Source: Vermamoeba vermiformis
Taxonomy: Eukaryota
Assembly: GCA_045837725.1 (NCBI GenBank)
Contig: JBEWZL010000209.1
Coordinates: 558,001-622,000, forward strand
Length of the DNA stretch: 64,000 nt
Reading direction: 5' to 3'
The translations under genes were made by a program, and so were the position numbers. Of this stretch, positions 3,379 through 62,367 are shown in pieces. Below the pieces are notes generated by a model that made no database searches, was not told the origin of the DNA, and saw nothing but the letters and a program-made list of their open reading frames with translations. Every line of letters begins with the position of its first letter. The stretch's first letter is position 1.

Positions 3379-5643
3379 TTAGGCTATGTTGACCTTCTCG
3401 ACGTAGAGCCTAATGTTGCAGGAAGTATCAACACCGCGTCCTGAACGGAAATACAACATTAATTTCTGTGAATTTTAATTGGTGGGATCTACTACTTACG
3501 CAAGCGCATGTAACCGCCTTCTCCCCACCAGCTACCCCAAGAGTTACGCACAATCCAGTAATCATGGCCAGTAGGTCCATCAGTACCGTAGCCAACAATG
3601 TTCACTGCGTGGTTAACAACGCCTTCGCAAGATCTGCCACCAGTCATTATGCCACCAGAGTAGCTGTAAAATCCGTATGGTACGTAGATTGCGACCGAAA
3701 GAACTCCTTCTTGGAGCTTGCTTATAATCGCAGCGTCGGTAGTCGGACTACCGTTGGATAATTTCGTGGATTCAGATCCGCGAACAACTCTTCCGATGCC
3801 TGAACTTGTTCTTCGGCAAGAACCCTTCGCATTTTGGTAAGGATAGTCAGAAGCATAAGCAACACCTCCGTTGCTGGCGGCAAACTGAAATGCTCCCAAC
3901 ATCCAGCCACCTAAATTTACTTTTTAGTACACGCTCGATTGAGTCTTTAAAATGTGATATAAAAATATACTTATTTATCAGCGAGAAAGGTTTTATAATT
4001 ATTATTGCATTACGTACCGTTGCAGGTATACTGTGAATCCGAGCAGTCGAGGAGTTGTTGAACAGACAATACAGGAGGGGGTGTCTGATACTTGATTGCG
4101 TAGTTGCTCTCGATTGAAGCAGCAGCACTATGAGCCCAGCAAGATCCGCAAGTTTGTTGATCTTTGATCGGACTCGAAAAGCCTTTGTCAGTCCAAGAGA
4201 ACTTGGAGCCAGTAGCAACAGGCGGAGATACAGGGGGAGATACAGGCACATCGGAGTCATAGCATTGCTGCACGATTTTGTAAACATTGTTGCGCCATCC
4301 GCCTCCGCACATCTGAGCGGGATTGCCCATACACGGCACATTGCAGTCAGATTCACTCGCCTGGCCGTAGTTACCAAATGAATTGCCACAGAAGCATTGC
4401 GAAGCGAATTGAACACCAGCCACGGTGTATCCTTGGCTCGAGCAGATCTGCACGCACATGTCAACTGTCATGTCAACCGAAAGTGTCACTGTGCCTGACA
4501 GATCACGATAGACATCATCGATGAAACATCCTTGATACTGAGGGACTTGAGTGCAAGTTGTGGTCTGGGCTTGAGCAGCTTGTATGCTGTAGATCGAGTT
4601 GCGATAATAACCACCGCATTGTTCGTAGGCATTACCGGCACAAGGAACGTAGCACTCGTAGTCTTGTACCTGGCCATATTGACCGTAAGAGTTGCCACAG
4701 AAGCATTGATTTCCGGCCTGAACTGCTGCGTACTTGAAGGCGTTGTTGCGGCAAGTTTGAACACAAAGTTCAACGGTCATTGCATAGTTGTAGAAATAAG
4801 CGCCCAAGAGGTCACGATAGTAGTAGTCAGCATAGCATCCCATGTACTGAGTAGATGGAGGTGCAGCGGAAAGACAAACGCCATTAGGACACTGTCACGA
4901 ACTTGGATCAGATCCGTTGCGTCTCACTGAGAATAAGTACGTACATCGGGGTTGCATGGAGGTCCGCATGTGACGGTCTTGCAGCCATCGGATACGCGAC
5001 CACAAGTAGCATTACCACATGGATTAAGTTGTGGGACACAAGTACTGTTGCTCGGTTGCAAGCCTCTGAAGTTACCACGAGGTGCCCAAGTGCAGTGCCA
5101 GTACTGACCAATCGTAGGACAGGTCACCATAGCACATCCTACTCGGTTACTAAGATGAAAAGTTGAACGTTAGTTGCGGACTTTAGATCTTCGAAGAAAT
5201 TTCCTTACGTTGACCACCAAACCATTTGAGTATAGTTCTTGGCTTTATAAGCATTGCCCAACTCACCAGCGTAGTTAACGTTTTCAGATTCCCAAGCCAA
5301 GAGCGCCTGAAGTTATTATAATTAACGTTTTATACTATCGCTTATTACGTACTTGTTCGTAAGTGAACTGCTTCTTATCTCCGGATACGATGAATGTTTG
5401 GCCACGGACACCGCGTAAAGATGGATCTAAGCCGACTTTGCACTGAGAGACCCAGTTCAAAGACTCTTGCTCCAACTTGTCGTCCCAAGTGATAGTCTTC
5501 ATATTAGCAGGTGGAGGAGTCACTCGAGCACGGATAGCGCCGATGTAATCTAAAATATTAGATTTATCGCTGGAGGCAATTTCGTTAGCTCCGCTGGCAA
5601 CCGTTACAAATAAAATTAGGCCTAAAAATAGTAGAGTACGCAT
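3379..5643 (-). CDS. Secreted multidomain protein: CAP/SCP domain + 2 WSC domains + papain-family (C1A) cysteine protease
   Basis: Spliced from ORFs 5335-5643, ~4924-5300, 4010-4843 and 3492-3902, plus a last exon ending TAA at 3379. CAP motifs: RARVTPPPANMKTITWDDKLE, GLCGQRYYTQMV. Two WSC repeats (GCY/F...MTVELC...C...YAAVQAGNQCFCG...C.G...CGG). Protease catalytic motifs: IKDQQTCGSCWAH, VNHAV, WIVRNSWG. Confidence 0.85.
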
Positions 5644-5839
5644 GTTGTCGCGTATAGTCGTTTTATAGATTAAGACCTTGAAAACAAGTTTAAACCTTTT
5701 CCTGCTCGCTGTATTGGCCGTAACAATTGAAAGTCCTCCCCGCAGTATTTACGGTTGAATTGCAATATTCTTGTTTTTTTCTTCCCGACCGTAACCAATT
5801 TAAGCCACTATTTTGCTATTCTAGGCACAATTCTATACG

Positions 5840-6458
5840 ATGAGAACCAACATTTGCATTATTTTACTGTCCCTCTTGAGCGTATCGCTCGCTTGGACGG
5901 ATCTCGAGTACCAAGAGGTCTTCGACACATTTAACGAGAACTATGGCTACTCATTCAAGTCTGGCGATGAATACAACAAAGCATTTGAGAATTTCAAAAC
6001 AAATCTCCAGGATTCTGCCTCGCTATCCACCGACGATGGTAATAAAAAATTAAATCCATGAAAAGGGACGCTTACTTATCTACTTTAATGAAATAGTCGA
6101 GCACGATATCACGCCCTACTCTTATATGACCCAAGCGGAGCAAATTGCAATGCTTACCGGTGCAGTTGCTCCCGCCGCTGCTGCAGCTGCCCTGACCGAA
6201 GGCGCCATTGCAGGCATTGTCGTTGGCTGCGTCGGTGCTGCAGGTCTCGCAGTCGGAGGTGTGTTCCTTGGATTGCATTTGAAGAAGAAGAAGGAAGAAG
6301 CCGAACAAAATGCCGGATCGAAACAGCAAACAACCACTGACAGTCCTGCTACTACCTCCAAAAAGCCCGTTCAAGGAGTTGATATCTATCCTAGCATCGA
6401 TGGTCGTCATCAATCCATCACTGCCCGAGCTCCTGCTATCAAGAAAACTCCCCAGTAA
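5840..6458 (+). CDS. Type I membrane protein with a cathepsin-propeptide (inhibitor I29)-like ectodomain
   Basis: Two exons with an intron at ~6039-6097. Signal peptide, then FDTFNENYGYSFKSGDEYNKAFENFKTN (ERFNIN-like) and HDITPYSYMTQAE (GNFD/FADMT-like), then a TM helix GAIAGIVVGCVGAAGLAVGGVFLGL followed by KKKK. Confidence 0.65.
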
Positions 6459-45268: not shown

Positions 45269-45603
45269 ATTTTGACGACATCTAGATCGTGATCAATTTT
45301 TTCAAACCGATACTATACATTTATTTATTTACATTCTAAAAATAGCGCTTTACTGGATAAGCAATAATGCTTTGCATTTGATTTTCTTTTTTAATTATTC
45401 CACGCTTGCCAGATCCGTGGATGCAATCTATTTTTGTGGTCAACAGGAGCTTCACGAAAAATACTACCATTTAAATTGAACGTTGAAATTATTATTACGG
45501 TCCCAATACGTTATTAGGATACAATTTACACAGATCTTTTCTTCCATTTATTAATTACTGAAATAGAGCCAACGAAGTTCGTACTATTTAAGAATCCTAT
45601 AGC

Positions 45604-47239
45604 ATGGACCACGAAGAAAATAGCGACGAAACAGCTTTCCAAACGAGTTCGAGTGACATTGAAGATGACACGTGTCACCAAACGACTGCTGAGCGCGCCA
45701 ATACAAGCGCAGATCTGACGCAGTTATCGCATCGATCAGAAGGCACTGAGACTAGAAGAGTACTAAAACAGCCTTTATTGTTGAACAATAGTGACACGTT
45801 AAGAAGTGGCTCGGGAACTTCATCCGCTAACAGATCTGATGTGGAGCATGCGCGCCCGATTGATGATAGTGACGATCACAAGTACGCGGAGATTAATAAC
45901 CAAAAAAGGAAATATTTTCAATATATTCTGCGAGCCTACGAATACTCGAAGGGAAACATGCCTGCGTGGACCGAGAAAATGAACGCCATGGACTCGAAGT
46001 GGGGTCAGTGCCTCCGATTTATAGACGCCTTATTGCGTGGCGTTAGTCAGGTACTGTATTATCTACACCCTATCGCAGCGCAAAAGGAGCTAACAAATCT
46101 CTTACAGATCGGATTCGTAAACAGTCCTATTTTTGGCTTAGGAACGTTTCTAGTAGCGCTTTTCACCGAGTAAGTATAATTATCTATGTTTTTTACTATA
46201 GTCTATCAACTTCTATTCAAGTACGTGGATTGGACTCTGCGGCATGGTGGGCTGTTTGTGTACTTCCGTATTCGCGGTGCTGTTCAAACTGAACAAAGAA
46301 TCATTTAGGTACGGCATTACAATCCTATTTATTGGTAGTATAATTACGATCTAATGGCCAAGCAGGCTTGGATTATTTGGATTTAACGGGTATTTATTTG
46401 GTGCCTCGCTCGCGATCTACCTTTCAACTGCTTGGGATTGGCGGACAGTAGTATTAACCATTCTATTGGCGCCATTGACTATCGTGAGTCGCGATGGATT
46501 AATGATAACTTAACATTAGCTTACTCGATTTTGAACAGATCTTTCAACTTGGTATCGGCAATATTCTATCGCCCTATAATTGCCCACCATTCGGCTTACC
46601 GCTCTGTATAGTCGCCAATCTGCTATTTTTAGCACTCAAAAATGCCCAACCAAAAGTAGAAGCAGCTGTGGCTAATGCTGTTGCGGGGTACGAAATTCCA
46701 CACGATGCTTGGGACGCACCAGTATTCTTTCAATCGCTGGGCCGGTGCATTGCTTTAACGTTTTTCAAGCTCAATCCATGGTCGTAAGTTTTCAACAAAA
46801 CTAAACTTCAGTGAGTAAGATCTGTTTTTCTAGATCAATTGGCTTCGCCGCGTTGTTGCTTTTATATTCGCCCATCCATACACTGAACGCCGTTACAGGC
46901 TCATTAGTTAATACAGCCACTCTTTTTGTCCTCGGTGTGGATGAGGCTAAAATTGCCAACGGAGTTTTAGGCTGGAACTCGACTCTATTATGTAAGACCC
47001 ATCAATGCATGGTGCTGTTCACTAACGCCTATTTAATATTAGGCTTGATGCTAGCAGAGTTCTTCAAACACAGCTTGACTTCGTGGCTGTACGCCATCTT
47101 TGCCTCAATATTGACGACGTTGCTGCACGTGAGCATTGCGCCAATGTTTGCGGCGATTGGTTTGCCTGAAATCAGCTTGCCATACACTATCATTGGATAC
47201 TTATTCGTCATCTCAAGAGCGCTTGTGGTGCCAGATTGA
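45604..47239 (+). CDS. Urea transporter (UT/SLC14 family)
   Basis: FIDALLRGVSQ|IGFVNSPIFG, GLFGFNGYL, PPFGLPL; second repeat LGRCIALTFFKLNPWS, NGVLGWNSTL, LPEISLPY. This is the duplicated LP-box architecture of UT channels, with about 10 TM helices. Confidence 0.85.
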
Positions 47240-47496
47240 GTTGACCAAAAGCATTGCTCAACTCGCTAATTCTGAACCACAGCACGAAAGGAAACTGCGC
47301 ACTCCGCTAAGGCACTTCAACTTTGACTGACCAACGACATATATCGGAGGCAGGACGAGATTTGAACATGTCCCCAGCGGTAAATCCTCTGTTTGCTCGA
47401 GCATGCGATTTGCTAGACCATTATTATCAACCTAAATTTATTATTTATATATATTTCGCAAAATTCCTTGTCCGCGTGCGAGGACCTCATTCGTTC

Positions 47497-49475
47497 TTAT
47501 TCACCTTGGCCTTGAGAGAAGCTAGGCTTGCCGTTCATCAAGTACAAGTTCTCCATCTTGATAAAGTCGAAGCCAGCATTGCGAATGCGCATCAACAACG
47601 AGATGATCTGCGCGTGCTTGATGGGCTCACCAGTCACAGACTTGAATCTGCAGCGCCAGTGGTCAGTGCAGAAAGTCTCGGGGAAGCCGTTGGGCCAGAC
47701 TTTAACACCACGGTTGGTGATCAAAGTCAACTTCATGCCGTCACCGTTCAAACTCGAAATAGCAGTGCCCAAGTCTTCAGCAGTGCCGTTCTTGGGAGAC
47801 CAGTGCAAGAAGATGTCGCAACCGATCGTGTCCTTCTTGGCAGGAGGAACATCAGAGACAGTTGGGCGCCACTCCTTCATCGAGCTGCCGTCTCCCTTAG
47901 CGTAGTGCACGGGCTTGAGTTGAACTGGCTTCTTGCCAAGTCGTTCAATAACGGCCTAAAGTGCACGGTCAGCACAACTAGTAGATCTAGATCCGGAGCT
48001 CGTTCGACGTACCTTAGTGAACTCAGTGGTGCTGACCTTCTTCTTCGAGACACCCTCGCGATAAATATCAGGAGTGTGGAGACCGTCTTCAATGGTCTTG
48101 AGCCAAGCGTTGTGCACGTTCTCAGCTACATCAGGTTGACCAATGTGCGACATCATCATCACAGAGGACAGCAAGAGACCGGACGGATTGGCGACGTTCT
48201 TGCCGGCAATTGGGGGAGCAGAGCCGTGAATGGCTTCGAACATTGCACCGCCGTCACCAATGTTAACGGATCCACCGAGACCGACGGAGCCAGTCAATTG
48301 AGCAGCGACATCAGAGAGAATGTCACCGTACAAGTTAGGCATGACTACAACGTCAAACATTTCGGGGGTATCAGCAAGACGAGCAGCACCAATGTCGACG
48401 ATCCAGCGGTCCTTTTGGATGTCTGGGTAACGAGCACCAACTTCTTCAAAAACTGCACGAAAATTATTAAAATATTTCCTATTAATTATATAATTGATAT
48501 TAATACCTTTGTTGAACAAGCCGTCGGTCATCTTCATAATGTTGTCCTTAACGAAGCACGAAACTTTCTTGCGACCATGTCTACGTGCGTACTCGAAGGC
48601 GTATTGAATAATACGCTCGCAACCAGGTCTAGAGATGAGCTTCAAGCATTGAACGACTTGATCGCTGAATTTTTAAAATGGATTAGTCTAGATCTGAAAA
48701 TTAGAATTATCTGCTTACGTTTGCTGATGCTCAATTCCTGCGTATAAATCTTCCTCATTCTCACGAACAATAACAACGTCCATATTAGGGTGCTTAGTCT
48801 CGATGAATGGCGAGTACACATTGCAAGGACGAACGTTCGCGAAAAGGCCCAAAGTCTTACGGATCGTCACGTTCAAAGATTTGTAGCCACTGCCGATGGG
48901 TGTGGTAATAGGACCCTTCAACAAAACTTCATTGATGGTGAGAAAGGTATATTTTTAAAAATTTTAGTAATAATTTTACCTCGAGTTTTGCGGATCGAGT
49001 CCCAAGATGAAGGAGCAATGCCTGAAGAATGGCCCTAAAAAGGCGAACACGTTAGAAATGGATTCTTCCATGTTTCAGCGACGTACTGAGAGGTAGACCT
49101 TCTCTCCAACATCAATGTGGTCCCACTGAATTGCGGCGCCTGCTCGATCCAGAATTTCTACAGTAGAATTTGTGATTTCGGGACCTTTGTGGCTCTATTA
49201 GTACTCGTAATACGTAGCTGCGTAGCTTTTACATACCAATTCCATCACCTTTGGCAATTGTAACGGCCACCTAAAAAGATCGTTAAAAATAACAGCAGAT
49301 TGGATCTACTTTGGTTTACCTTCTCTCGCTGGGCAAACAACGAGGTTGAGAAAGAGCGAGAAGCGGTGTTCTTAGTAACGGAGTTCAGTGCTTTAACCAG
49401 TTAGATTACAAAGCGCTGCGAAAGTGGCGATTTTAACTTACCAGGCTTCGATTTGCTCAATACTTGACGCAACAT
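47497..49475 (-). CDS. icd: Isocitrate dehydrogenase, bacterial (Rickettsia/Thermus-like) type, with a mitochondrial-type presequence
   Basis: [11 protein letters not shown]...TASRSFSTS leader. [71 protein letters not shown]-terminal extension [10 protein letters not shown]...TDHWRCRF...KMENLY...FSQGQGE. Confidence 0.93.
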
Positions 49476-49776
49476 GATTGTTTCGCGAAGAGTCGTGCTT
49501 CTAGCTCCAAAAGAGGATAACAAATGAGTTGAACTCAGGAGAAACTTCCCACGTGACCTCCGCAACAAAAATTAAAGATAAAAAAAAGATTGTGGATAAG
49601 GATCCGAGGCCTATTGAGGAATTATCCTGTACTATTCCACACTAGTATTATAATCCTTGATTTTAAATACAAAATTATCCACGTGTGCCTTGTTTATACT
49701 TAAAAGAGATATAAACACGTGACTTTACCTATTTCGGAAATGATCGCCGTAAGCCGGAGAAACGTTATTTAGGAGC

Positions 49777-49790
49777 ACGGATAGCACCCG
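49777..49790. promoter_or_regulatory. Candidate cluster regulatory element ACGGAT-AGC-ACCCG upstream of IDH
   Basis: 13/14 match to the perfect inverted repeat at 59939-59955. Confidence 0.45.
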
Positions 49791-49944
49791 ATAATTGTAC
49801 CGAAGATATTTGTTTTTTGGTTAGTGTTCGAAGTCGATTAAGAGAAGAAAGAGCGATTTAAATGACAAAAACTAAAGTTTATTTCGCAAAAGAGGTAAAA
49901 TTTAAAAATTATCGGGCTGCTATCTGGCCGATATCTGCGGTTAC

Positions 49945-52900
49945 TTAATGCATGGTGTGAGTAGCGAGGTAATCGTCGTAGTTCTTGATGGGCATATCCT
50001 TGACGCGAGTCAATGCTTCGGCCAAGAAAGCGCAGACTTGCTCGTTGGTCAAGCAAGGAACACCAAAGTCAACGGACTTTCTGCGCAGATGGTAGTTGGA
50101 GATGTCTTCGTTGCGAGTAGGGAAGTTAATAACCAAGTCGAGCTTCTTTTGAGTGACCCAAGTGATGGCGTTGTTAGCGTCCTTTGAGCTGAGGTCGGGC
50201 TTGGAGAGCTCCGTGAATTTAACGTTATTCTTCTTCAACAAGGGGGCAACCTCCGGAGTGGCAAACAAAGTGTAACCGCCGCCGACCAAAGTTTGAGCGG
50301 ATTTGACGAACTCTTGGGTGACGTTGCCAGAGAGCAAAACGGTCTTTTGCTTAGTGGGCATCTTGAAGTAAGGAGGAACAGAGGTCATGGCCTTCAAGAA
50401 GGCTTCATACTTGTTCTCACCGAAGCAAGCGACTTCACCAGTGGATGCCATTTCAACACCCAAGATAGGATCAGCACCACCCAAACGTTGGAAGGAGAAT
50501 TGAGGAGCCTTGACACCGACGTACTTCAAGTCGCTGTTGCACTTGTAGTTAGGAGTGATCTTTTGACCCATGAAGACCTTGGTGGCAGTCTCGATAAAGT
50601 CAATGTCGTAAGTCTTGGAGACGAACGGGAACGAGCGAGAGGCACGCAAGTTGCACTCGATGACGAGGATCTCGTCGCCCTTGACCAAGAATTGAATGTT
50701 GCAAGGACCAGAGATCTCCAAGGCCTTGGCGATCTTGCTGCCCATCTCGAAGACGCGGCTCTTGACTTGTTGGCTCAAAGTGTCAGAAGGCAAGATCATA
50801 GTAGCATCACCAGAGTGAACACCGGCGTTTTCAATGTGCTCAGAGATGGCCCAGTTGACCATAGTACCGTCGCAGGCAACACCGTCAAGTTCAACTTCAC
50901 GAGCACCCAAGACGAACTTGGTAATGACAACAGGGTGGTCAGGGTTAACATCAGCAGCCATAGCCAAGTAGCTGACCAACTCTTCTTCGTTGGCAGCGAC
51001 GTTCATGGCGGCACCAGACAAGACGTAAGAAGGACGAATCAAGACGGGGTAACCGACCTTCTTGGAGAAGGACTTGGCCTCATCCATGGAGCTGAGTTCC
51101 TTCCACTCAGGCTGGCCGACGCCAATGCTGTCCAAGAGCTTAGAGAACTTGTAGCGATCTTCGGCTTGATCGATCTTGTGCGGGTTAGTACCGAGAACGT
51201 TGACGCCGTTCTTGTACAAAGGCAAGGCAATGTTTTGAGGTTGTTGACCGCCGACTGAGACGATGACACCGTTGGGGCTCTCACGATCGTGGATATCCAA
51301 GACACGTTCGAGAGACAACTCTTCGAAGTAGAGCTTGTCGGACTCGTCGTAGTCCGTGGAGACAGTTTCGGGGTTGTAGTTAACCATGATTGTCTTTTCG
51401 CCCATCTTGCGCAAGTTGCGAACGGCAGAAACAGCGCAGTAGTCGAACTCGACGGAGCTACCGATGCGGTAAGTACCAGAGCCCAAGACCATGACGCCAC
51501 CCTTGTCTTCGGGGATGTCGCTCTTTTGACCGTTGTAGGTCATGTACAAGTAGTTGGTCTTGGCAGGGAACTCAGCAGCCAAAGTATCGATTTGCTTGAC
51601 GACAGGAACGACGCCCATGCCCTTACGAACGCTACGGACTTCGAGTTCGTCGGCCTTGGCGTACTTGCCGATTTGCTTGTCGGAGAAACCAGCAGACTTG
51701 GCCTCACGCATGAGTTCACGAGGAATGTCAGTGACGTTGCCAATGCTGACAATGTTCTTTCTGATCTCCACAATGTGCTTCAACTTCTCCAAGAACCACT
51801 TGTCGATTCTGGTCAATTGCCAGATAGTGTCAACAGAGTAGCCTTGTTCCATAGCCTTGGCGATGGCGAAGATGCGGTTGGGAGTAGGGTTCTTCAACTC
51901 CTCGTCCATGTCGCCTTCGAACTTGGCTTCGAAGCCAGCGTTAGAAGGATCGACCATGCGGAGGGCCTTTTGCAAGGACTCTTCGAAGGTACGACCAACA
52001 GCCATGACCTCACCGACAGACTTCATTTGACTGCCGAGGAGAGGTGAGACGCGTTCAAACTTCTTCAAGTCCCAACGAGGAATCTTGGTGACAATGTAGT
52101 CCAAGCTAGGCTCGAAGCAGGCAGAGGTAGACTTGGTGACGCTGTTGGAGATTTGGTGCATAGGAATGCCGAGAGCAATCTTGGCGGCGACGAAGGCGAG
52201 AGGATAACCAGTAGCCTTGGAAGCCAAAGCGGAAGAACGAGAAAGACGAGGGTTGACCTCAATAACGCTGTATTCGAGGCTGTTGGGGTTGAGGGCGTAC
52301 TGAATGTTGCATTCACCGACGATGCCCAAGTGTCTGACGGTCTTGATAGCAGCAGTACGGAGCATGTGGTACTCTTCGTTGCTGAGAGTTTGAGAAGGAG
52401 CGACGACGATGGATTCACCAGTGTGGATACCCATGGGGTCGAAGTTCTCCATGTTGCAAACAGTGATGCAGTTGTCTTGAGCGTCACGAACGACTTCGTA
52501 TTCGACTTCCTTCCAGCCCTTCAATGACTTCTCAACCAAAATTTGAGGAGCAGAGCTGAGAGCACGAGAAGCCAAAGCTTCGAGTTCAGTGGGGTTGTTG
52601 GCAAAACCAGAGCCCAAACCACCCAAAGCGTAGGCGGCACGAACAATGACGGGGTAGCCGACCTTTTCAGCGGCTTCGAGGGCAGCCTTGACGGTGACGA
52701 CGGCCTCGCTCTTAGCGAACGGCTCACCAATCTCAGCGAGCTTTCTGTTGAAGAGCTCACGATCTTCAGTGGCCATAATAGAGTCGACGGAAGTACCCAA
52801 GACACGAACGTTGTACTTCTCCAAAATACCTTGGTGGGCCAATTCAACACCAGTATTCAAACCGGTTTGACCACCAAAACCAAGCAAAACGCTGTCAGGT

Positions 52901-54757
52901 TTCTGTTAACAGGCTAGGTTAGTACACGATCAACTGAACTCACTCAAACTAGTGAACTCACCTCGCGTTGAATAACGCCCTCGACCATTTGTGTAGTGAC
53001 AGGCAAGAAGTAGACTTTATCGGCAATACCCTTGGCGGTTTGGACGGTAGCAATGTTCGGGTTGATCAAGACGGTCTCAACACCTTCTTCCTTGAGGGCC
53101 TTGATGCACTGAGAGCCAGAGTAATCGAACTCTCCGGCTTGACCGATTTGCAGAGCACCAGAACCGATGATCAAAACCTTACGAGCGGTTTGAGTCTTAG
53201 CGGGTTGAGCGATGAGGTGAGTCTTGTTCTTGTAGTTGACGACAGTGTCGTAGAACTTGCCGAAGAGGTACTTGGTATCGTATGGGCCACCACGAGCTTC
53301 AGGGTGGAATTGAACGCTGAAGAAAGGCTTGGTCGCGTGCATGATACCTTCGTTGGAGCCGTCGTTTTGGTTAATGAAGTAAGGCTTCCAGCCAGCAGGC
53401 AAAGTTTGGTTGTCAACAGCGTAGCCGTGGTTTTGAGAAGTAATGTAGCATCGTCCGGATGTCTGATCCATAGCAGGTTGGTTTTGACCTCTGTTACCGT
53501 ACTTCAATTTGTAGGTATTGGCGCCAGCGGCGAGGGCCATAAGTTGGTTACCCAAGCAAATACCTGATAGCGGGTAATTAATACAAATTATTTGTGATTT
53601 TTAAAGTATAAATCCGCGTTTGCCACGGATCGAATCCCTTACCGAAAATAGGTTTTCCGATTTGATAAGCTTTCTGAATGTGAGAGATGGTAGCAGTGAC
53701 TGTAGCGGGATCACCAGGACCGTTGGAAATGAAGAGACCGTCGTAATCTTCGTTGGTAAAGTCGTAGTCCCAAGGCACAACTTTAACGGTAACGTCGCCC
53801 ATTTTGACGAGCTCTCTGATAATGTTGTACTTCATACCGCAGTCTACGGCGATGATCTTAAGCTTGCCATGGCCGTAAGTCTTGACTTCCTTGGTAGAAA
53901 CTTTCTCCACCAAGTTGCCGGAAAAGGCGCCTTCGAGATCGATATCTTGGTCGAAAACAATTTTACCAAGCATAACACCGCGGCTACGGAGCTTGCGAGT
54001 CAAGGCACGAGTATCGATTCCGCTGAGAGCGGGGATATTTTCGCTCTTGAGCCAGTCGCCCAAAGATCTTTCAGCTTGCCAGTGAGAGTAGTTCTCCGAG
54101 TAGTTAGAGACGAGCAAACCAGAAACATCTGTAGGAGAAGTGGATTAAGGAAAAAAAAAGTCTGGATCTTGTGGATTTGAAGTTCATGAACGGTTTAAAA
54201 TTAAACATAAATTTTTAGGCAACTAGGGCTTAAGGATACGAATTCGATCGGATTCGAAGTGCTTGAGAAGGCCAACTTCGTCTGTTTCGCGAAGAGGCAC
54301 ACCATAGTTGCCGACCAACGGGTAAGTGATAGTCAAAATTTGGCTCTTGTACGAAGGATCTGTAAGGGATTCAGGATAGCCGACCATACCGGTGTTGAAG
54401 ACGACTTCACCCTTCGTAGGGCGGTAGGCACCAAAGGAGGTACCTGCGAAGGTGGTTCCGTCTTCAAGGACCAAGTAGCCCTTCAAAAAAATTAAGTTAG
54501 CGAAACGGCGGATGAAAGCAAAAAGCTAAAAATAACCAATTTGTGTTTTTGTGAATGCGATCGTTTGCTTACCGGTTCGCCGTGACCATCCTTAGCCTTG
54601 GAGGCGTACAGACGCTTGCTGCCAACGGCGGTTTTCGGGTTTACAACCGCGGAGGATAGTTTACCAACTGCATTTATAGAAATTGTTATAATAATGAATG
54701 AGAATGCGTAATTAAGATTGAGCTCGTACCTGAAAGTTTTTGGATCGCGCGCAGCAT
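49945..54757 (-). CDS. Glutamine-dependent carbamoyl-phosphate synthase (fused small + large subunit) with a mitochondrial-type presequence, not CAD-fused
   Basis: Six exons. Leader [67 protein letters not shown] (catalytic Cys kept), [15 protein letters not shown], two ATP-grasp halves and an MGS-like tail. Stop at 49945 with no DHOase or ATCase domain. Confidence 0.97.
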
Positions 54758-55026
54758 GTTGCGAAGTGTAGAAATAAAAGCAAAATAATCAAAAAAAGAA
54801 AAATCTCGAGCGGTCCGTTGCACGTGGCCGAAAATTTTATCCATAAATTTTTGGAAGCTTAAACCTTTGCAATGATTTCGAAAAAAAAAACGGTACAAAT
54901 TTGGAAAGGAGGATACCGCGGAGATTAGAAATCCAGAGCCCATGTGACTTTTTTAAACATAAACCAGTTTTATAAATAAAATTTTGCTTACCTCCTCATT
55001 CATCATCACAACGTAACAACAAAGCC
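54758..55026. promoter_or_regulatory. Putative bidirectional promoter between CPS and GSIII
   Basis: 269 bp between divergent ATGs. Contains GCACGTGGC (54820-54828) and CCGCGGAGATT (54916-54926). Confidence 0.6.
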
Positions 55027-57474
55027 ATGGCTGACGCTCGCAAAGAGATCTTCACTTCTATCGTTAACTCCACTCCTCGTCGTGTGGAGGAAAAACACTG
55101 GAACAACGCTAAGGAGTTCATCGAAACATTCGCCGACGAAGTGTTGACCGATGAGATCCTTCGCAACTTGGTTCCCGACTCCACTTGGAAAGCGTACCAA
55201 AAGGCTCGCCAAGATCCTCACCACGACATCGACGCTCAAACCGCGGACCAAATCGCCAACGCTATGAAGGAGTGGGCCTTGTCTAAAGGTAAGAATTTAA
55301 CGTTAGTTTTAGCTTTATTTCGGACAAAATCGATATCCATTTTTAGTGATCCAGATTTTAATATTAAAATTTAATTAGGTGCGACTCACTTTACTCACTG
55401 GTTCCACCCCATGACTGGCGCTACTGGCGAGAAGCATGACTCTTTCTTGAACTACTCTCGCAAGGACAACAAATTCATCATCGAGTTCAGCGGCCGCGAG
55501 TTGATTAAGGGCGAGCCCGACGCCTCTTCATTCCCTAGCGGTAAGTGCTTTATCGGGATTCAACCGTTTCACAATCTGCGACCTTGAGATTTGTTTACTA
55601 AGTATACTAAATTAGGTGGTGTACGCGTTACCTTCGAAGCCCGTGGCTACACTGTTTGGGACATGAGCTCTCCTGCCTTCATTAAACGCGGTGCCAACGG
55701 ATCCAGTCTCTACATCCCAACCGCTTTCTGCTCCTGGTAAGTTTCTGGATCGATCTACGTTTCGCATCTAAAAATGGAAACTTACAATTGCTGCAGGACT
55801 GGTGAAGCCCTTGATACTAAGACTCCTCTCTTGAGAGCCGAAGAAGCCATCTCTCGCGAATGCACTCGCTTGTTGAAGGTTATCGGAGAAACGGATGTGG
55901 ACTTCGTCCGCACTACTATGGGTCCGGAGCAAGAATTCTTCCTTATTGATCGTGGCTACTATCTTAGCAGACCCGACCTTGTTGCCGTTGGTCGTACCGT
56001 CGTTGGTGCCCCACCAAACAAGGGTCAAGAGAGCGAATATCACTATTTTGGCGCTATCGACCAAAGAGTATTGGCATGCTTGCAAGAGCTCGAAATTGAG
56101 TTGTGGCGATTGGGCATCCCCGTCAAGACTCGCCACAATGAGGTCGCTCCTTCACAATTCGAGATGGCTCCAATTTACGAAGGCTCGGTTATTGCCGCAG
56201 ATCACAACTTGTTGGCAATGGATGTGTTGCGCGAAGTTGCTGCTAAGCACGGACTTGCTTGCTTGTTGCACGAGAAGCCCTTCAGCTACGTTAACGGCTC
56301 TGGCAAGCACTTGAACTGGTCTCTTGAAACTAGCAAGAAGGAGAACTTGCTCGAACCTGGCGCTACTCCTCGCGACAACCAACGCTTCATTCTCTTCTTG
56401 GCCGTTATTCTCAGAGCTATTCACCTCCACGGCGAGATGCTCCGCGCTGTTATTGCAGTGCCGGGCAACACTCACAGATTGGGCGCCAACGAAGCTCCTC
56501 CAGTTATCATCTCCGCTTACTTGGGATCTGAATTGGATGCTGCTTGCAAGAGCGTTATGGCTGCTGACTCTGGTGCCGCCAACGGCAATGCTCAAAACGT
56601 TCTTCGCTTGGGCGTTTCTAACTTGCCTCCTTTGCCTCGCGATCCTTCTGACCGTAACCGCACTTCTCCTTTCGCCTTCACTGGCAACAAGTTCGAATTC
56701 CGTGCTTGCGGTTCTTCTCAAAACATCTCCTTCCCCATCACTGTGTTGAACAGCATCGTTGCCGACTCCGTTAGATACTTCGCTGACGAGATCGAGAAGC
56801 GTGTTGCATCCGGTACTGCTCGTGCTCAAGCCATCAACAATATCATCATTGAGGAGCTTAAGAAGCACTACACTGTTGTTTTCAACGGCAACGGCTACAG
56901 CGAAGAGTGGGTTGTTGAGGCCGTCAAGAGAGGTTTGCCCTTGTTGAAGACTGCCCCTGAAGCCTTGGCTGTTTGGGACAAGCCTGAGAGTCTCCGCATC
57001 TTCAAAGAACAAGGTGTTCTGAGCCACATCGAGGCCTCCTCTCGCTCGCTCATTTTGCACGAAGCCTTCTTCGAGAGCATGTTGACCGAAGCCCGCGTCA
57101 TGGTCGACCTGGCCTCCACTCGTATCACTCCTGCCGCCGTGAACTATCAAAGACAATTGGCTCGCAGCTACAACGACGCTTTGTCCGTCCTCAAGGACGA
57201 GAAGCTCTTCGTCAACCAAAAGAGCACTTTGTCTTCCGTCACTGCATTGCTGGAGAAGCTAATCCACGCTACCAACGAACTCCGCGAGATCCTCCACAAG
57301 GCTGAGGCTGATGTCAAGAAGACGGATTTCAGAAAGGCTTTGGCTGCTTGGTACGAGCCTGTCATGAGCACTATGCCCAAGGTTCGATCAGCCAGCGACG
57401 AGCTTGAGCAAATCCTCAGCGACGACCTCTGGCCTTTGGCTAAGTACAGCGAAATTTTCCTCACTAGCAAATAA
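55027..57474 (+). CDS. glnN: Glutamine synthetase type III
   Basis: Four exons. [119 protein letters not shown]. No presequence seen. Confidence 0.96.
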
Positions 57475-57900
57475 GAAGCCACGGCGTTATTATTTGTTAT
57501 TTTCCATATTTTTTTGTTTTGAAAGCGCGAAGATTTTTTTTTGATCTGTTTAATAAATTACTTACTTACTGAAGTCCACAATGCATCTCGACCCCAAATA
57601 ATGAATATTCACTACAAGCACAGTCTCATATTGATGACATTGCTAACAAGTACCGAGCTGATCAAAAACAGGTTAGTCAATTTAATAATTAAAGATACCC
57701 AAACGGTTACCTTTTTTTGCACGTGCGTGAGCTTGCTCATATTTAGATTTTTGAGAAGTGAATTCACGCGTTATAGTATATCCACCTGCTTCATCTAACG
57801 CTCCTGATATTTAAAATGTATTTATTTGCACGAAATAAATCAAAAATCATTAAATATCGTGACGTTGTCGTGTTTGTCACATTAATTGAAAAGCAAAAAA

Positions 57901-59726
57901 TTAATTTTTGTAGTTGGCAGGAATCATGTTGAGCAACTCTTGGGCGGTCTTGATGGAGCCAGCCTTGGAGGCAATGGTGCGGACAGTGTCGTAAGCAGAC
58001 TTGACACGGTTGTTATCGGCTTCGAGGACCTTCTTGTGTTCCTCCAACTCGCTGCGGAATTGCTTCAACATATCGGCAACAGCCTTAGGACCAGTACCAC
58101 CAACAGAGTTGTAAGTCATCATAACAGACTTCGGGTCGAGAACGCGTTGCAAATCTTCGCGAGAAGCCTTGATATTGTGCTTGTTGACAATGTGGTTGTA
58201 GCAGGCTTCGAAGTTCTTGAAGTTGTCCTTGGCGCGGTAGAGATCACCGACCAAGCTGCCGACAATATGGTGAGCCTCTCTGAAAGGAACGTTGTGCTTG
58301 GAGACCAAGTAGTTAGCAAGCTCGGTAGCATTGGCGAAGTTCTCAAAGGCGAGCTCGTTCATTCTCTCGGTGTTGATGGTGGTGGACTTGATGAGAGGAG
58401 GGATGACTTCAATAGCCTTGTTGATGATGTTCAAGGACTCGACGAGGATCTCCTTGTCTTCGTGGAAGTCTCTGTTGTAGCCAGAAGGCAAGCCCTTCAT
58501 CATAGTGAAGCCAGCGACCATCAAACCGTTGATGCGACCAGAGCGACCACGGAGCAACTCGAGAGCACCAGGGTTTTTCTTTTGAGGCATCATAGACGAG
58601 CCCATAGCGAAGCCGTCGTCGAGAGTGAGGGTTCTGAACTCGTAAGAAGACCAGAAGATGAATTCTTCGGCCAATCTGCTCAAGGTAGATTCCAAGATGG
58701 CGACAGCGCTGACGGTCTCGAGCATGAAGTCACGAGCAGAGGTAGCGTCCAAACCGTGAGGATGAACCTTTTGGAAGCCCATCAAACGAGTGGTGATTGT
58801 TCTGTTAATGGGGAATGAAGTGCCAGCAATAGCACCAGTGCCGAGAGGGTTTTGATCGGTAGTGTCGTACGCGCGCTTCAGACGTTCCAAGTCACGCAAC
58901 AAGATAGCGGCGTAGTGAGACAACCAGTAAGCAACAGAGATGGGTTGAGCGTGTTGAACGTGGGTGTAGCTAACCATAACTGTTTCCAGGTATTGCTGAG
59001 ATCGCTCCAAGAAAGTCTCGACGGCTTCAACAACGCGTCCTCGGAGCTCCAAGAGTCTGCGGCGAGCGTACAACTTAGAGTCCAATACGACTTGGTCGTT
59101 ACGAGAGCGGCAAGTGTGCATACGACCACCGTGATCCATGCCGATCTCCTTGATCAGACGAGCTTCGACGTTCATGTGCACGTCTTCTTGTTCGTGGCCA
59201 AGAGCCCACTTCTTATCAATCTATTTTAATTATTACGGGTAAGTAGGAGAATTTTTAAAATTAATTCATAAAAAATTAATCCAGTACTTACGAAGTCGTT
59301 TTGGAACTTTAGAAGAGCTGGCAAAATTGCGGCAGCAGCGGCAGGAGGGATAACTCCTTGAGCACCAAGCATGGTAGTATGCGCCAAGCTACCCCAGATG
59401 TCTTCAACGACCAAGTTGCTATCGACGGTGATGGATTCGGTCCATTTAAGGAGCGAAGTATCGACGTCTCTCGAGAAACGACCACCCCACAACTTGGTAG
59501 ATTTCTTCTCGCTGGCCAAAGGAGAGCTACTCCGAAAGGTATTATTAATACAGCCGTACTTAATTATCAACTATTCTTAAACTAACCTTGTGTGGAAGGA
59601 AGCCACGGGAGTTGCCTTGCGGGCCTCAGTTGCGAGGACAGGAGCAACAACGTTAGGCTTACGAGCAGCACGGGATACGGTTCTGCTAGTAGCAGAAGCG
59701 ACGCGGCGAGTGATTTGCGAAAGCAT
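57901..59726 (-). CDS. argH: Argininosuccinate-lyase-family enzyme with a mitochondrial-type presequence
   Basis: Three exons. Arg/Ser/Ala-rich leader MLSQITRRVASATSRTVSRAARK. KLWGGRF, EDVHMNVE, HTCRSRNDQV, YTHVQHAQP, GSSMMPQKKNP, GLPSGYNRDFHEDKE, PFREAHHIVG. Confidence 0.92.
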
Positions 59727-60006
59727 CTGTGTTTGTTTGGTAGATGGAGTGGATGAAACAAAAAACGAAAATCTAAACCACCAAGGTAGGCAAATTTATT
59801 AAATTTATGGTTAAAATAGTTCAACAAAAGGGCATATTCCTTTTATAGACTACTGAAATATAAATCTCCGTGGATCGCGCTCCAAAAAATGTACGCAAAG
59901 TTTTCCCAGCACGTGGCGACTTTTCCTCCGACAATAGCAACGGATAGCATCCGTTTCAGTTTATGGTTTGGTGACCACGTAGCTCATTCAATCTCACAAA
60001 AAACAA
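59727..60006. promoter_or_regulatory. Putative bidirectional promoter between the ASL-like gene and ATCase
   Basis: 280 bp between divergent ATGs. Contains AATCTCCGTGG (59863-59873), GCACGTGGC (59909-59917) and the inverted repeat AACGGAT-AGC-ATCCGTT (59939-59955). Confidence 0.6.
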
Positions 60007-61342
60007 ATGTTGAAGAACGCAATTACTAAGGGTACGACCTCCGGCATTTGTTCGTTATAAATCCCGTACTAACGTCGATTACTTTAGGAGTTCAACTCTT
60101 ATCAAGCAACAGTGCTCGCAAATCTCCTTCTTTGGTTCGGGTATGCCTGGATCCACTAAGTTTATTTTTATTTCGATTTTAAGTTTTTATTTTTAAAAAT
60201 TAGGGTCTCGCTACAGCTTCGCCTCGCGTTGCCAGCTTGAAGGGCAAGAGCATTTTGTCTCATGCTCAGTTCGACAAGAACACTTTGGACGAGCTATTCG
60301 ATGTTGCCAAGTACCTCAAGAAAGTCGTGGATGAGAAGGGCGAAACCAACGATCTCGCTGGAAAATACATGGCTGCTGTCTTTTATGAGCCATCAACACG
60401 TACTACTTCTTCTTTCCAAACCGCTATGATGCGCTTGGGCGGAAAGGTTATTGGTGGTACGTACAATTTTCATTAATCGCAGTTTATTTAAGGGACGCGT
60501 TACTAACCGTTAAATGACCTAGTGAACTCTCAAGCTTCATCTGTTGCCAAGGGTGAGACTCTTCCTGACACTATTCGTGTTATGCAAAACTACGTGGATG
60601 CGATCGTTCTGCGCCATCCTGAGATGGGAGCCGCTGCTACCGCCGCTAAATGGTCCAGAGTACCTATCCTTAACGCTGGTAATTTTAATATTATTTTTAA
60701 CGCCCAAAGACTTTTCTAACAAAGATTTTAGGTGATGGTGCTAACGAACATCCGACTCAAGCTTTGCTCGATATGTTCTGCGTCAAAGAAGAGCTCGGCA
60801 AGCTCAATGGCTTGACTGTAACCATGCTCGGTGACTTGAAGGTACGTAGCTGATGTCGGCAGTAATGTACAGTCCTTGTAACATTTATTAATGGCTTGTT
60901 TCTCGCTTAGTACGGCCGCACTGTGCACTCGATGGCACCTTTGATGGCACACTACGGCATCAAGTTCAACTTGGTCTCGCCTCCTTCATTGAAGATGCCC
61001 AGCGAATACGTTACTTTGTTGAAGAGCAAGGGCGCACAAGTCACTGAAACTGAGGACCTCGAGAGCGTGTTGAAGTCCACCGACGTGTTATATGTGACTC
61101 GTGTTCAAAAGGAGCGCTTTGCTACTGAAGAAGAGTACAAAAAGGTCAAGGGTTGCTACATCATCGACCCTGCTCTCTTGTCTCGTGCTCCCAAGAACAT
61201 GCTCGTACTTCATCCTCTGCCTCGTGTCGATGAAATCACTCCCGAAGTCGACAGCGACAGCCGTGCTATGTACTTCAAAGAGCCTCGCTATGGTATGATC
61301 ATGCGCATGGCTCTCTTGCTCTCCGTTCTCGGTGGCAAATAA
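60007..61342 (+). CDS. pyrB: Stand-alone aspartate carbamoyltransferase with a mitochondrial-type presequence
   Basis: Six exons. Leader [98 protein letters not shown]. These are ATCase-specific; OTC's SMG and HCLP motifs are absent. Confidence 0.93.
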
Positions 61343-62367
61343 GCTCAGTAGCGAATAAATGCACTTATTCATCGACGAGATTTTATTTTACGACTCTTTC
61401 ACAATAGCCACGACGAGCAAGTAGATGTGATTCTCGCGGCTTTTCAAAAAAAGCTCATCCTTATTGATAGCTGAAACGTGTTTGAATAATTTAAATTACC
61501 GCCTTTCGCTTACTAACGATAATGTAGAATGCAACATCACAAAAACAAAGTCGTGTTTGGCACCAGTCATAGTCAGTCATAAACTGTACTTGTCTCGATG
61601 TGCACTCCGCGTGCGCTATTCCATTACACTTACCTTGTCACCTCCTCCTACTTTTTCGATAACTTGTTCGTAATCAGTGACTTCTTCGAGCGTGCGCGGA
61701 ACGTAGATCTGTCAGAACACTTCATCTTCAGCTTGATTAGAAACTACTTCTTGCATCTAAGATATATTATTAAGTGTTGGAACAAATATCATTATTTGTA
61801 GTTCGACGTGGACGATAATTAAAATGGTTTAGCATAAGAAATGCGGTTAAATAAAAATTTGGATGTAGCAACGGAAGCGTCGTATGCGATAAGAGCTGAT
61901 AAACTAGTTTATCTATTAATTTTACTTATTTTCACACTTAATTAACCTGTTTACGTGTAAGTAGATTTAATTTCAGTGGATTAGAGTTCGCTCCTCATGT
62001 GACAACCAAGTTATAACTTACTTTTACTTTCTTAAATATTGAGCGAGAACGAAAAGGCGGCATTGGTTAGTTGTGGTTCTTGGTAAAGATTCAAGTTCAA
62101 AAATGATAAAACTTAATTAAATGCCGAACATAATCCGCACCACAAAGTACAATGAACCTCGAACGAATAGTCTATTCGAGAGTTACATTATTATTGCTCA
62201 CTTAGCATGGAGAAACAAAACTGCAAGATCGAGTTGCAAACGAGGTGAATAGTTTACGCTTCATTTATTTTAGGAACTACTTCGATAATCAAGTCCTTTA
62301 ATGATAAAAATCCTGGTAGATTCGATTGCTTTTAGTATTTTTAATTAATTTAATTAATAATTGATTT

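Follow-up and report, generated by a model that had tools for sequence, protein, structure and literature searches.

We identify a cluster of six consecutive genes of nitrogen and carbon-skeleton metabolism in Vermamoeba vermiformis, encoding a predicted urea channel (UT), IDH, CPS, GSIII, an ASL-family lyase, and ATCase. Judged by its sequence, the lyase is not an ordinary ArgH; it is a member of a little-known branch, ASL', whose bacterial representatives lie within carAB/pyr operons on all six contigs examined. We propose, with a probability of about 0.42, that the cluster is an ordinary co-regulated mitochondrial carbamoyl-phosphate hub. This reading leads only narrowly over the alternatives, because the gene context of ASL' elsewhere points to carbamoyl-aspartate.

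Results

The six genes occupy exactly positions 45604-61342 of the window, the 64,000-nucleotide stretch of contig JBEWZL010000209.1 analyzed here, and all of them carry introns (Table 1). Gene models were built from stop-to-stop open reading frames and GT..AG splicing. Contigs of run X1 that are free of the predicted introns confirm two introns in UT, four in CPS, and three in ATCase, and cover the leader exons of the latter two; X21 reads confirm one more ATCase intron. Both leader introns of CPS are among its four confirmed introns, and both leader introns of ATCase are among its total of four. One IDH intron is roughly matched by X21-X23 reads. The two lyase introns were placed by alignment to bacterial relatives and are absent from the listed intron joints.

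Table 1. Genes and CACGTG-bearing spacers of the cluster, in window coordinates
Feature	Position	Strand	Details
UT urea channel gene	45604-47239	+	7 exons, 437 aa
IDH, ~480-aa ICDH_alpha type	49475-47497	-	9 exons, 518 aa
CPS-IDH spacer (upstream of IDH, downstream of CPS)	49476-49944		three CACGTG: 49550, 49680, 49716
CPS, fused GATase-CPS	54757-49945	-	6 exons, 1469 aa
CPS/GSIII divergent spacer	54758-55026		one CACGTG at 54821
GSIII, type III glutamine synthetase	55027-57474	+	4 exons, 740 aa
ASL-family lyase (ASL' clade)	59726-57901	-	3 exons, 564 aa
lyase/ATCase divergent spacer	59727-60006		one CACGTG at 59910
ATCase, aspartate carbamoyltransferase	60007-61342	+	6 exons, 342 aa

The spacers computed from these models, in order from UT to ATCase, are 257, 469, 269, 426, and 280 bp, too short to hold an additional gene. 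With the families confirmed by profiles, the original prediction of six consecutive nitrogen and carbon metabolism genes uninterrupted by an unrelated gene is borne out, as are its two divergent pairs with spacers of ~270-280 bp, here measured at 269 bp for CPS/GSIII and 280 bp for lyase/ATCase. CACGTG is not confined to the cluster spacers and is present elsewhere in the window. Among ten large open reading frames outside the cluster, three match unrelated Pfam families and seven match none. A tblastn search of the window with bacterial queries found no further OTC, ASS, or dihydroorotase (DHOase) gene, in agreement with the prediction.

That six housekeeping genes came to lie together by chance, forming a neighborhood with no functional meaning, would fit the occurrence of the spacer motif elsewhere in the window, but we consider it very improbable. 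All six genes belong to nitrogen and carbon-skeleton metabolism and have unrelated flanks, an arrangement that we judge qualitatively to be far beyond chance for a eukaryote. CPS and ASL' also appear to share one contig in a relative with 66-68% identity (P0276, P0022; longest contig 24678 for both), and four of the six families of the amoeba cluster (CPS, ASL', ATCase, and GSIII) recur within 12 kb at the bacterial locus L081. The yeast DAL allantoin cluster likewise consists of adjacent non-homologous genes of one metabolic theme with divergent promoter pairs, although the amoeba cluster belongs to another lineage (Amoebozoa) and another set of pathways.

The CPS scores 1347.7 bits on TIGR01369 and has an N-terminal GATase with a visible active-site Cys motif, a CPSase_sm_chain domain, two ATP-grasp halves, and an MGS-like domain, the features of a glutamine-dependent enzyme. 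Among solved structures it comes closest to human CPS1, at 1197 bits, whereas E. coli CarB scores 799, and it shares 57-60% identity with oomycete and animal CPS of 1450-1510 aa that are annotated as ammonia- or arginine-specific. The ATCase has TIGR00670 as its top-scoring family on each of its two large exons and contains OTCace_N and OTCace domains. Its ATCase-type motifs, which presumably have roles in aspartate binding, are complete (RHPE, HPTQ, GRTVHS, TRVQKER, and HPLPR) and are not of the OTC type (HCLP, SMG). The phosphate motif is STRTT rather than STRTR, a variant common to a Chloroflexi-type clade. The closest solved structure to its C-domain is the ATCase domain of human CAD (5g1n, 142.8 bits), and its clade includes XP_004367994, the ATCase of Acanthamoeba castellanii, together with a CPS-ATCase fusion of Rigifila. 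By these sequence comparisons, both CPS and ATCase look like ordinary eukaryotic enzymes.

Profile matches likewise identify the remaining three genes. The UT exons score 15-30 bits each, in profile order, and the five that were mapped are collinear on PF03253 (positions 33-58, 62-96, 99-174, and 182-230); the open reading frame at 46805-47239 reaches 56.4 bits (cut-off 25). UT is a predicted urea channel by family membership and has an acidic N-terminal extension of 149 aa. IDH matches PF00180, and two of its exons score 349.6 and 125.3 bits on NF006673 and 336 and 91 bits on TIGR02924. GSIII has the domains of a type III enzyme, with GSIII_N on exons 1-3 followed by Gln-synt_C and Gln-synt_C-ter, and shares 43-46% identity with its L081 counterpart.

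Four of the proteins begin with a basic leader, defined as the extension ahead of the first conserved core motif. The leader has 34 aa with 6 K+R in IDH (first acidic residue at position 34), 41 aa with 8 K+R in CPS (at 36), 57 aa with 10 K+R in the lyase (at 34), and 39 aa with 7 K+R and zero acidic residues in ATCase. By N-terminal composition, GSIII and UT are without one. The original prediction had placed mitochondrial-type leaders on the same four proteins; their composition is indeed basic and suggests putative mitochondrial presequences. That the four are alike in composition fits a single compartment. In eukaryotes, ordinary ASL resides in the cytosol or in plastids, and we know of no precedent for a mitochondrial ASL.

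The lyase shares much with ArgH/ASL (EC 4.3.2.1; TIGR00838; 2e9f, 1tj7, 1aos). It has the same Lyase_1 and ASL_C2 domains, and on TIGR00838, the argH equivalog model, its exon 3 by itself reaches 437.1 bits, above the cut-off of 279.5. Its best solved relatives are the ASL of Thermus (E 1e-81) and E. coli (E 5e-74), and it retains the catalytic TH and GSSxMPQKKNP as well as the SRND and YN(K/R)D motifs. However, it falls in the sharply separate ASL' clade (SH-aLRT 100) and carries a C-terminal extension of ~50 aa in addition to its leader. A comparison of 50 ASL' rows with 21 ordinary ArgH gives 115 columns that are conserved in each class; the two classes agree at 101 of these and differ at 14. 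Five of the changes, R->H, N->H, T->M, D->G, and Q->H, are adjacent to or within conserved motifs, and N->H, D->G, and Q->H affect positions that are 100% conserved across the ordinary set, where the ASL of Thermus and E. coli likewise have N, D, and Q. ASL' thereby has a new His at three conserved active-site-motif positions, including the Q of YNKDxQEDKE, which is His in 50/50 ASL' rows and Gln in 21/21 ordinary rows. We take this Q to be the substrate contact Q326 of human ASL. Its catalytic and contact residues, presumably S27, N114, T159, H160, S281, N289, Y321, Q326, and K329, are kept in the lyase at 8/9 positions by motif alignment.

The bacterial gene context of ASL' differs from that of ArgH. 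ASL' lies within carAB/pyr operons on all six contigs, its operon partners being carAB, ATCase, DHOase, or a phosphoribosyltransferase, and to our knowledge ordinary pyr operons (pyrR-pyrB-pyrC-carAB) hold no ASL-family gene. The combination of CPS, ATCase, and ASL' recurs in the amoeba cluster. Across 11 bacterial ASL' loci, ATCase is present at four, and neither argG nor OTC at any (0/11 each), whereas 149 ordinary argH loci, a control set that leans towards Bacillota and Nitrospirota, have argG at 119, OTC at 82, and ATCase at 0. An ordinary argG, argH, and OTC set exists alongside ASL' in both MAGs examined (G001 and G202). This operon linkage lends independent support to the proposed pairing of ATCase with the lyase; ATCase lies directly downstream of ASL' on 4/6 contigs.

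These observations raise the possibility, which we hold tentatively and with less conviction than the carbamoyl-phosphate hub, that ASL' acts as a lyase on carbamoyl-aspartate (ureidosuccinate). CPS and ATCase would then yield carbamoyl-aspartate for cleavage to urea and fumarate. The TCA cycle together with transamination would return fumarate to aspartate, and UT would let the urea out. On 5/6 contigs, bacterial ASL' is followed directly by a gene whose product makes or uses carbamoyl-aspartate (ATCase on L009, L010, L081, and G202:C561; DHOase on L001), the sixth (L008) having a phosphoribosyltransferase there, and carB is directly upstream on L008, L009, and L081. The bacterial ATCases that follow ASL' group in a clade of their own (SH-aLRT 92), apart from the amoeba ATCase, and the lyase-ATCase linkage thus arose with two different ATCase lineages. 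Both ASL'-bearing MAGs also hold class-A PyrB and OTC, so the ASL'-linked ATCase is an extra copy. The three new His residues also count in favor of this reading, and urea-handling genes are near ASL' in both settings, UT in the amoeba and a urea carboxylase 13.7 kb away on the G001 contig (TIGR02712, 1733 bits; cut-off 1304). Genes resembling FdrA/AllF occur in the vicinity of ASL' on L010 as well as on G001, and L010 also has an AtzD/TrzD-family ring-opening amidohydrolase nearby. There is chemical precedent: adenylosuccinate lyase cleaves SAICAR, which is amide-linked, and urea is the product released by ureidoglycolate lyase.

Several observations argue against such a lyase. The protein passes the argH equivalog model, and the near-complete set of contact residues would be unexpected if no long arginine tail were bound. 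The amoeba ATCase and CPS resemble ordinary pyrimidine and arginine enzymes, and the ATCase clade extends to Acanthamoeba, yet no Acanthamoeba-named ASL' is among the 120 matches listed. Both bacterial genomes are MAGs, with one interruption in the ASL' frame in G202, and G001 carries both carB and class-A pyrB in two copies, so that an additional copy does not by itself imply a novel role. Two-ATP urea has no obvious use for a bacterium, and an adjacent urea carboxylase would render the route futile. The short urea route of the original prediction is partly supported: its cluster anatomy is correct and its ATCase-lyase pairing gains support, but the proposed reaction is weakened by a CPS and an ATCase that look ordinary and by a lyase that passes the argH model.

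The same bacterial context would also accommodate an ASL' that is tied to ATCase and pyrimidine genes but acts on another substrate or in reverse, which we regard as unlikely. Another N-substituted aspartate could be, for example, argininosuccinate made from carbamoyl-aspartate and ornithine by a hypothetical ligase; the retained arginine-binding-motif residues fit a substrate with a long carboxylated tail, but no conserved extra ligase gene lies beside ASL' on the six contigs, and its neighbors beyond ATCase differ on every one of them. In reverse, urea and fumarate would give carbamoyl-aspartate, a carbamoyl-phosphate-independent entry to pyrimidines. The position of ASL' directly before DHOase on L001 fits such a supply to the pyrimidine pathway, but the bypass is redundant where the operon already holds carAB and ATCase.

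Discussion

In the carbamoyl-phosphate hub that we favor, a single glutamine-dependent CPS would produce carbamoyl phosphate in the matrix, the neighboring ATCase would channel it into pyrimidines, and an OTC encoded outside the window would convert it to citrulline. The lyase would cleave argininosuccinate, completing arginine synthesis or the urea cycle, while GSIII would provide glutamine, an NADP-type IDH would provide 2-oxoglutarate for glutamate and aspartate, and UT would pass urea. In plant plastids, one CPS serves both pathways. Direct observation covers the six genes with their families, splicing in three of them, the leaders, the pair of short divergent spacers, and CPS-lyase linkage among relatives; we infer mitochondrial import, co-regulation, and every catalytic assignment of the cluster proteins. 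The argH equivalog score and conserved motifs of the lyase, a CAD-like ATCase, a CPS1-like CPS, and the matching leaders all argue for this hub. Bacterial ASL' loci that are never beside argG or OTC, the 14 class-specific residues, and MAGs with a separate ordinary argH point away from it, as do the search for OTC and ASS, which found neither in the window, and the lack of a known precedent for a mitochondrial ASL.

Among solved structures, the amoeba ATCase is nearest the CAD ATCase domain, the CPS is of the eukaryotic fused GATase-CPS type, and CPS-ATCase fusions occur among relatives (P0146 of Rigifila; also P0375 and P0387). Unlike in CAD, CPS and ATCase are encoded separately at a distance of 5 kb, an interval that holds GSIII and the lyase. 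CPS and ATCase each have a basic leader, and the window has no DHOase domain or gene. The cluster resembles the ornithine-urea cycle of animals, diatoms, and oomycetes in its leader-bearing CPS, ASL-family enzyme, and urea channel, but it is without OTC, ASS, and arginase, and an ATCase stands beside the lyase.

Wherever examined, ASL' lies beside carbamoyl-phosphate or pyrimidine genes and never beside arginine genes, and it may therefore have a new function. Were this function the cleavage of carbamoyl-aspartate, it would mean two-ATP, ornithine-free urea production inside the mitochondrion.

A compact six-gene nitrogen cluster

Stop-to-stop reading frames combined with GT..AG splicing fill positions 45604-61342 with six genes, for which the Pfam and NCBIfam family calls are concordant (see table). 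The intergenic spacers measure 257, 469, 269, 426, and 280 bp, and the gene models bear out the two divergent pairs of the original prediction, CPS/GSIII (269 bp) and lyase/ATCase (280 bp). Intron-less contigs from sequencing run X1 back two introns of UT, four of CPS, and three of ATCase; a fourth ATCase intron is backed by reads of run X21, and this splice support extends to the small leader exons of both CPS and ATCase. The lyase introns are based on gap-free alignment with bacterial relatives and are absent from the joints listed for runs X1 and X21-X23. Two joints in X1 contigs run antisense to the lyase gene and could reflect antisense transcription with splicing, or else an ATCase leader that extends far upstream. 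Over positions 45400-61500, RNA runs X21-X23 match partially, mostly at 90-95% identity, with coverage depth generally below 3; they share the species label of the window, yet derive from a different strain or species.

Leaders had been claimed on IDH, CPS, the lyase, and ATCase, and all four were recovered, each 34-57 residues long, rich in K/R/S/T, and free of acidic residues ahead of position 34. Judged by composition only, these are predicted mitochondrial presequences; GSIII and UT carry no such basic leader. In type, the cluster IDH departs from the NAD- or NADP-IDH typical of eukaryotes. Outside the cluster, 10 large reading frames match unrelated Pfam families or none, and tblastn of the 64-kb window with bacterial queries gave nothing further for OTC, ASS, or DHOase, in line with their reported absence. 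The window contains 23 copies of the hexamer CACGTG, where 12.5 ± 3.7 would be expected; five of them fall in the 5' spacers of the cluster, three spacers that add up to ~1 kb. The hexamer may act as a promoter element common to these genes, and it also lies near other genes.

Features of the amoeba cluster (window positions) and of bacterial loci carrying ASL', the clade of the cluster lyase
Feature	Position	Strand	Exons	Details
UT (urea channel)		+	7	
UT N-terminal extension	45604-46050			149 aa, acidic, serine-rich, no Pfam family
IDH		-	9	
IDH extra C-terminal domain	47497-47955			~150 aa; ~480-aa IDH type, TIGR02924 / NF006673 (named NADP-dependent)
CPS (GATase-CPS fusion)		-	6	1469 aa
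GSIII (type III glutamine synthetase)		+	4	
ASL-family lyase		-	3	564 aa
ATCase		+	6	342 aa
X1 joints antisense to lyase (58784-59434)	58926->58990, 59237->59312	+		GT..AG
CACGTG in 5' spacers	49550, 49680, 49716, 54821, 59910			
Locus L081 (genome G001)				carA-carB-ASL'-ATCase-PyrR-PyrB, next GSIII + Amt
Locus L009				carA-carB-ASL'-ATCase
Locus L008				carB-ASL'-phosphoribosyltransferase
Locus L010				OMP-decarboxylase-like gene upstream on opposite strand; ASL'-ATCase-AtzD/TrzD family-EamA-FdrA/AllF-like
L010, downstream of ASL'-ATCase	3427-6207			AtzD/TrzD-family ring-opening amidohydrolase (445 bits), EamA transporter, FdrA/AllF-like gene
Locus L001				ASL'-DHOase-PyrR-PyrB
Contig G202:C561				ASL'-ATCase-SDR
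G001 carB pair	C8:45662-48925, C14:34188-37313			ASL'-operon copy 54% identical to amoeba CPS
G001 contig of carAB-ASL' (L436)	C14:48194-56346			urea carboxylase, AllG- and FdrA/AllF-like genes, DHO_dh + 4Fe-4S protein

The cluster lyase belongs to a separate clade

We placed the lyase in a 71-row tree that comprised 44 of the 120 listed hits, spread over the ranking, six ASL' rows drawn from fetched loci and from the window, and 21 ordinary ArgH proteins. It falls in a 50-row clade, ASL', that is split from ordinary ArgH at SH-aLRT 100; by its phylogenetic position, the cluster lyase is not an ordinary ArgH. Its exon 3 shares 96% identity with a protein from the same 90% cluster as a EukProt entry for Vermamoeba vermiformis, and CPS has a database match at 98% identity, which places the window in Vermamoeba or a close relative. 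A protein atlas search returned generic ASL clusters only. Members of ASL' come from Vermamoeba, Stenamoeba, Dracoamoeba, and Gefionella, from many contigs of transcript size, and from a small number of bacterial contigs. L008, L009, and L010 form a basal bacterial subclade, and a second bacterial group, made up of L081, L001, and a protein that its source attributes to a Myxococcales bacterium, is nested among the eukaryotes.

Across the 115 columns conserved in both ASL' and the 21 ordinary ArgH proteins, 101 are the same and 14 differ. The ASL' changes include R to H following the catalytic TH, N to H, T to M immediately preceding GSS, D to G immediately following KKNP, Q to H within YN(K/R)DxQEDKE, and R to Y close to the C-terminus; at all six, the ASL of Thermus and that of E. 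coli have the ordinary residue (in the pre-GSS case, T or S). Eight of the nine residues that we take to be the contact residues of human ASL are unchanged in ASL', the Gln being the sole change. The accessible portions of PMC12818424 and PMC2779060 contain no listing of the ASL residues that hold the arginine tail.

Sequence similarity favors the reading that we rank first, at a probability of roughly 0.4: a plain argininosuccinate lyase working in a mitochondrial carbamoyl-phosphate hub, which would feed both pyrimidines and arginine. The class-specific active-site changes point to a lyase linked with carbamoyl-aspartate. The retained arginine-side motifs speak against the original prediction, in which ASL' splits carbamoyl-aspartate into urea and fumarate; we regard it as possible but doubtful.

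In bacteria ASL' sits among carbamoyl-phosphate and pyrimidine genes

On every ASL' bacterial contig long enough to judge, the gene sits among carbamoyl-phosphate and pyrimidine genes. In the prokaryotic check that the original prediction asked for, ATCase and this lyase are neighbors on L081, L009, L010, and G202:C561. We scored as a control all 160 loci fetched with the cluster lyase as query, a set that leans towards Bacillota and Nitrospirota. Ordinary argH loci carry argG in 119/149 cases, OTC in 82/149, and ATCase in none of the 149; ASL' loci, six of which span only 1.6-4 kb, carry ATCase in 4/11 and neither argG nor OTC in any of the 11. No neighbor was seen on the short ASL' contigs L002-L007, and five reading frames on L003 and L006 have no Pfam family. 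We consider it highly improbable that the cluster neighborhood is meaningless.

The four ATCases adjoining ASL' form one clade (SH-aLRT 92) apart from that of the amoeba enzyme, so the lyase-ATCase pairing exists with two ATCase lineages. This bacterial gene context and the extra ATCase both speak for a lyase linked with carbamoyl-aspartate. The urea-forming route would serve no evident purpose in bacteria, which speaks against it. That ASL' acts on another substrate, or in the other direction, is in our view quite unlikely. The region downstream of ASL'-ATCase on L010 looks, from its gene families, like a ureide-metabolism setting, and its FdrA/AllF-like gene is 44% identical to the counterpart on the G001 contig.

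Second copies of arginine and pyrimidine genes accompany ASL'. In G001, from which L081 comes, contig C30 carries argG-argH-OTC as a group, and rpoB occurs once; G202 has an ordinary argH, argG, OTC, and class-A PyrB alongside ASL'-ATCase. Duplication alone proves little, because G001 also doubles carB (42-44% identical) and class-A pyrB (85.5% identical). Both genomes are MAGs with even GC within each, and the ASL' reading frame of G202 is interrupted once. They are the two ASL' genomes among the matches listed in the genome-contig scans (L081/G001 and L372/G202). In 201 genomes of the G001 phylum, the 69% identical match occurs in G001 alone, the best other match listed being 46%; in the G001 order, one of 301 genomes, G001 itself, matches at E <= 1e-120. 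The G202 phylum gave 0/401 at E <= 1e-110, a weak search since the interrupted G202 copy itself falls below this threshold.

CPS and ATCase resemble ordinary enzymes

CPS and ATCase look ordinary, which further weakens the urea-forming route. Against solved structures, CPS scores 1197 bits with human CPS1 and 799 with E. coli CarB, and it is 57-60% identical to oomycete and animal CPS of 1450-1510 aa. The ATCase has every ATCase-type motif and does not match the OTC type, which rules out a misread OTC; its nearest solved relative is the ATCase domain of human CAD. In an 81-row tree (every second of 80 prokaryotic loci, 30 protein hits, four, four, and two references, and the window), it falls within a Chloroflexi-type group, sharing a clade there with a Rigifila CPS-ATCase fusion, Thecamoeba, and the ATCase of Acanthamoeba castellanii. 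We saw no ASL in any of the 80 loci that surround the nearest prokaryotic ATCases. CPS-ATCase fusions that lack a DHOase domain were observed in three database proteins, P0146 (1494 aa), P0375 (1669 aa), and P0387 (1717 aa), one of them from Rigifila ramosa; the amoeba ATCase C-domain shares 60% identity with P0146, and the amoeba CPS shares 57% with P0375 and with P0387.

Origin of the cluster

A urea carboxylase (TIGR02712, 1733 bits; cut-off 1304) lies 13.7 kb from ASL' on the G001 contig. By the content of this contig, the amoeba cluster and the bacterial neighborhood both combine CPS, ASL', ATCase, GSIII, and a urea-handling gene. The same contig carries what may be a PreT/PreA-like pair, named from its domains. 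In a eukaryotic relative 66-68% identical, the CPS match (P0276) and the ASL' match (P0022) have a longest contig of 24,678 in both, and these equal sizes suggest that CPS-ASL' linkage is kept. For the 96% and 83% identical relatives, a metagenome scan gave no long contigs.

En-bloc transfer of a bacterial operon is rejected as the full origin of the amoeba cluster, because special closeness to the bacterial locus is confined to ASL' (62-69%); CPS and ATCase are 54% and 41% identical to it, and the amoeba and bacterial ATCases fall in separate clades. A fuller proposal holds that ASL' is a new carbamoyl-aspartate (ureidosuccinate) lyase that, with CPS and ATCase, would form an ornithine-free three-step route carrying Gln and Asp nitrogen to urea and fumarate in amoeban mitochondria, derived by inheritance or copying from a bacterial carAB-ASL'-ATCase operon. 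We offer it tentatively and think it unlikely.

Significance

Outside fungi and plants, eukaryotes rarely keep non-homologous metabolic genes in tight clusters, and the amoeba six-gene nitrogen cluster is a useful case of how metabolic clusters arise. Open-access listings yielded nothing relevant on urea or pyrimidine enzymes of Vermamoeba or Acanthamoeba or on such a cluster, and none of the open-access papers searched contains ureidosuccinate lyase, carbamoylaspartate lyase, or carbamoyl-aspartate lyase as a term. According to PMC7948467, freshwater amoebae keep stores of crystalline triuret, whose biosynthesis it states to be unknown. The ASL' route could be the source of the urea units in these crystals, which we treat as a lead and not as evidence.

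Our work sets ASL' apart as a subfamily that annotation pipelines would call ArgH, and its context in bacteria and amoeba is one of carbamoyl phosphate, ATCase, and pyrimidine genes, not arginine genes. If ASL' cleaves or makes carbamoyl-aspartate, it would represent a new EC activity. The resulting route to urea, if true, would be cheaper than the ornithine cycle and would provide a candidate answer to the source of amoeban ureide nitrogen stores.
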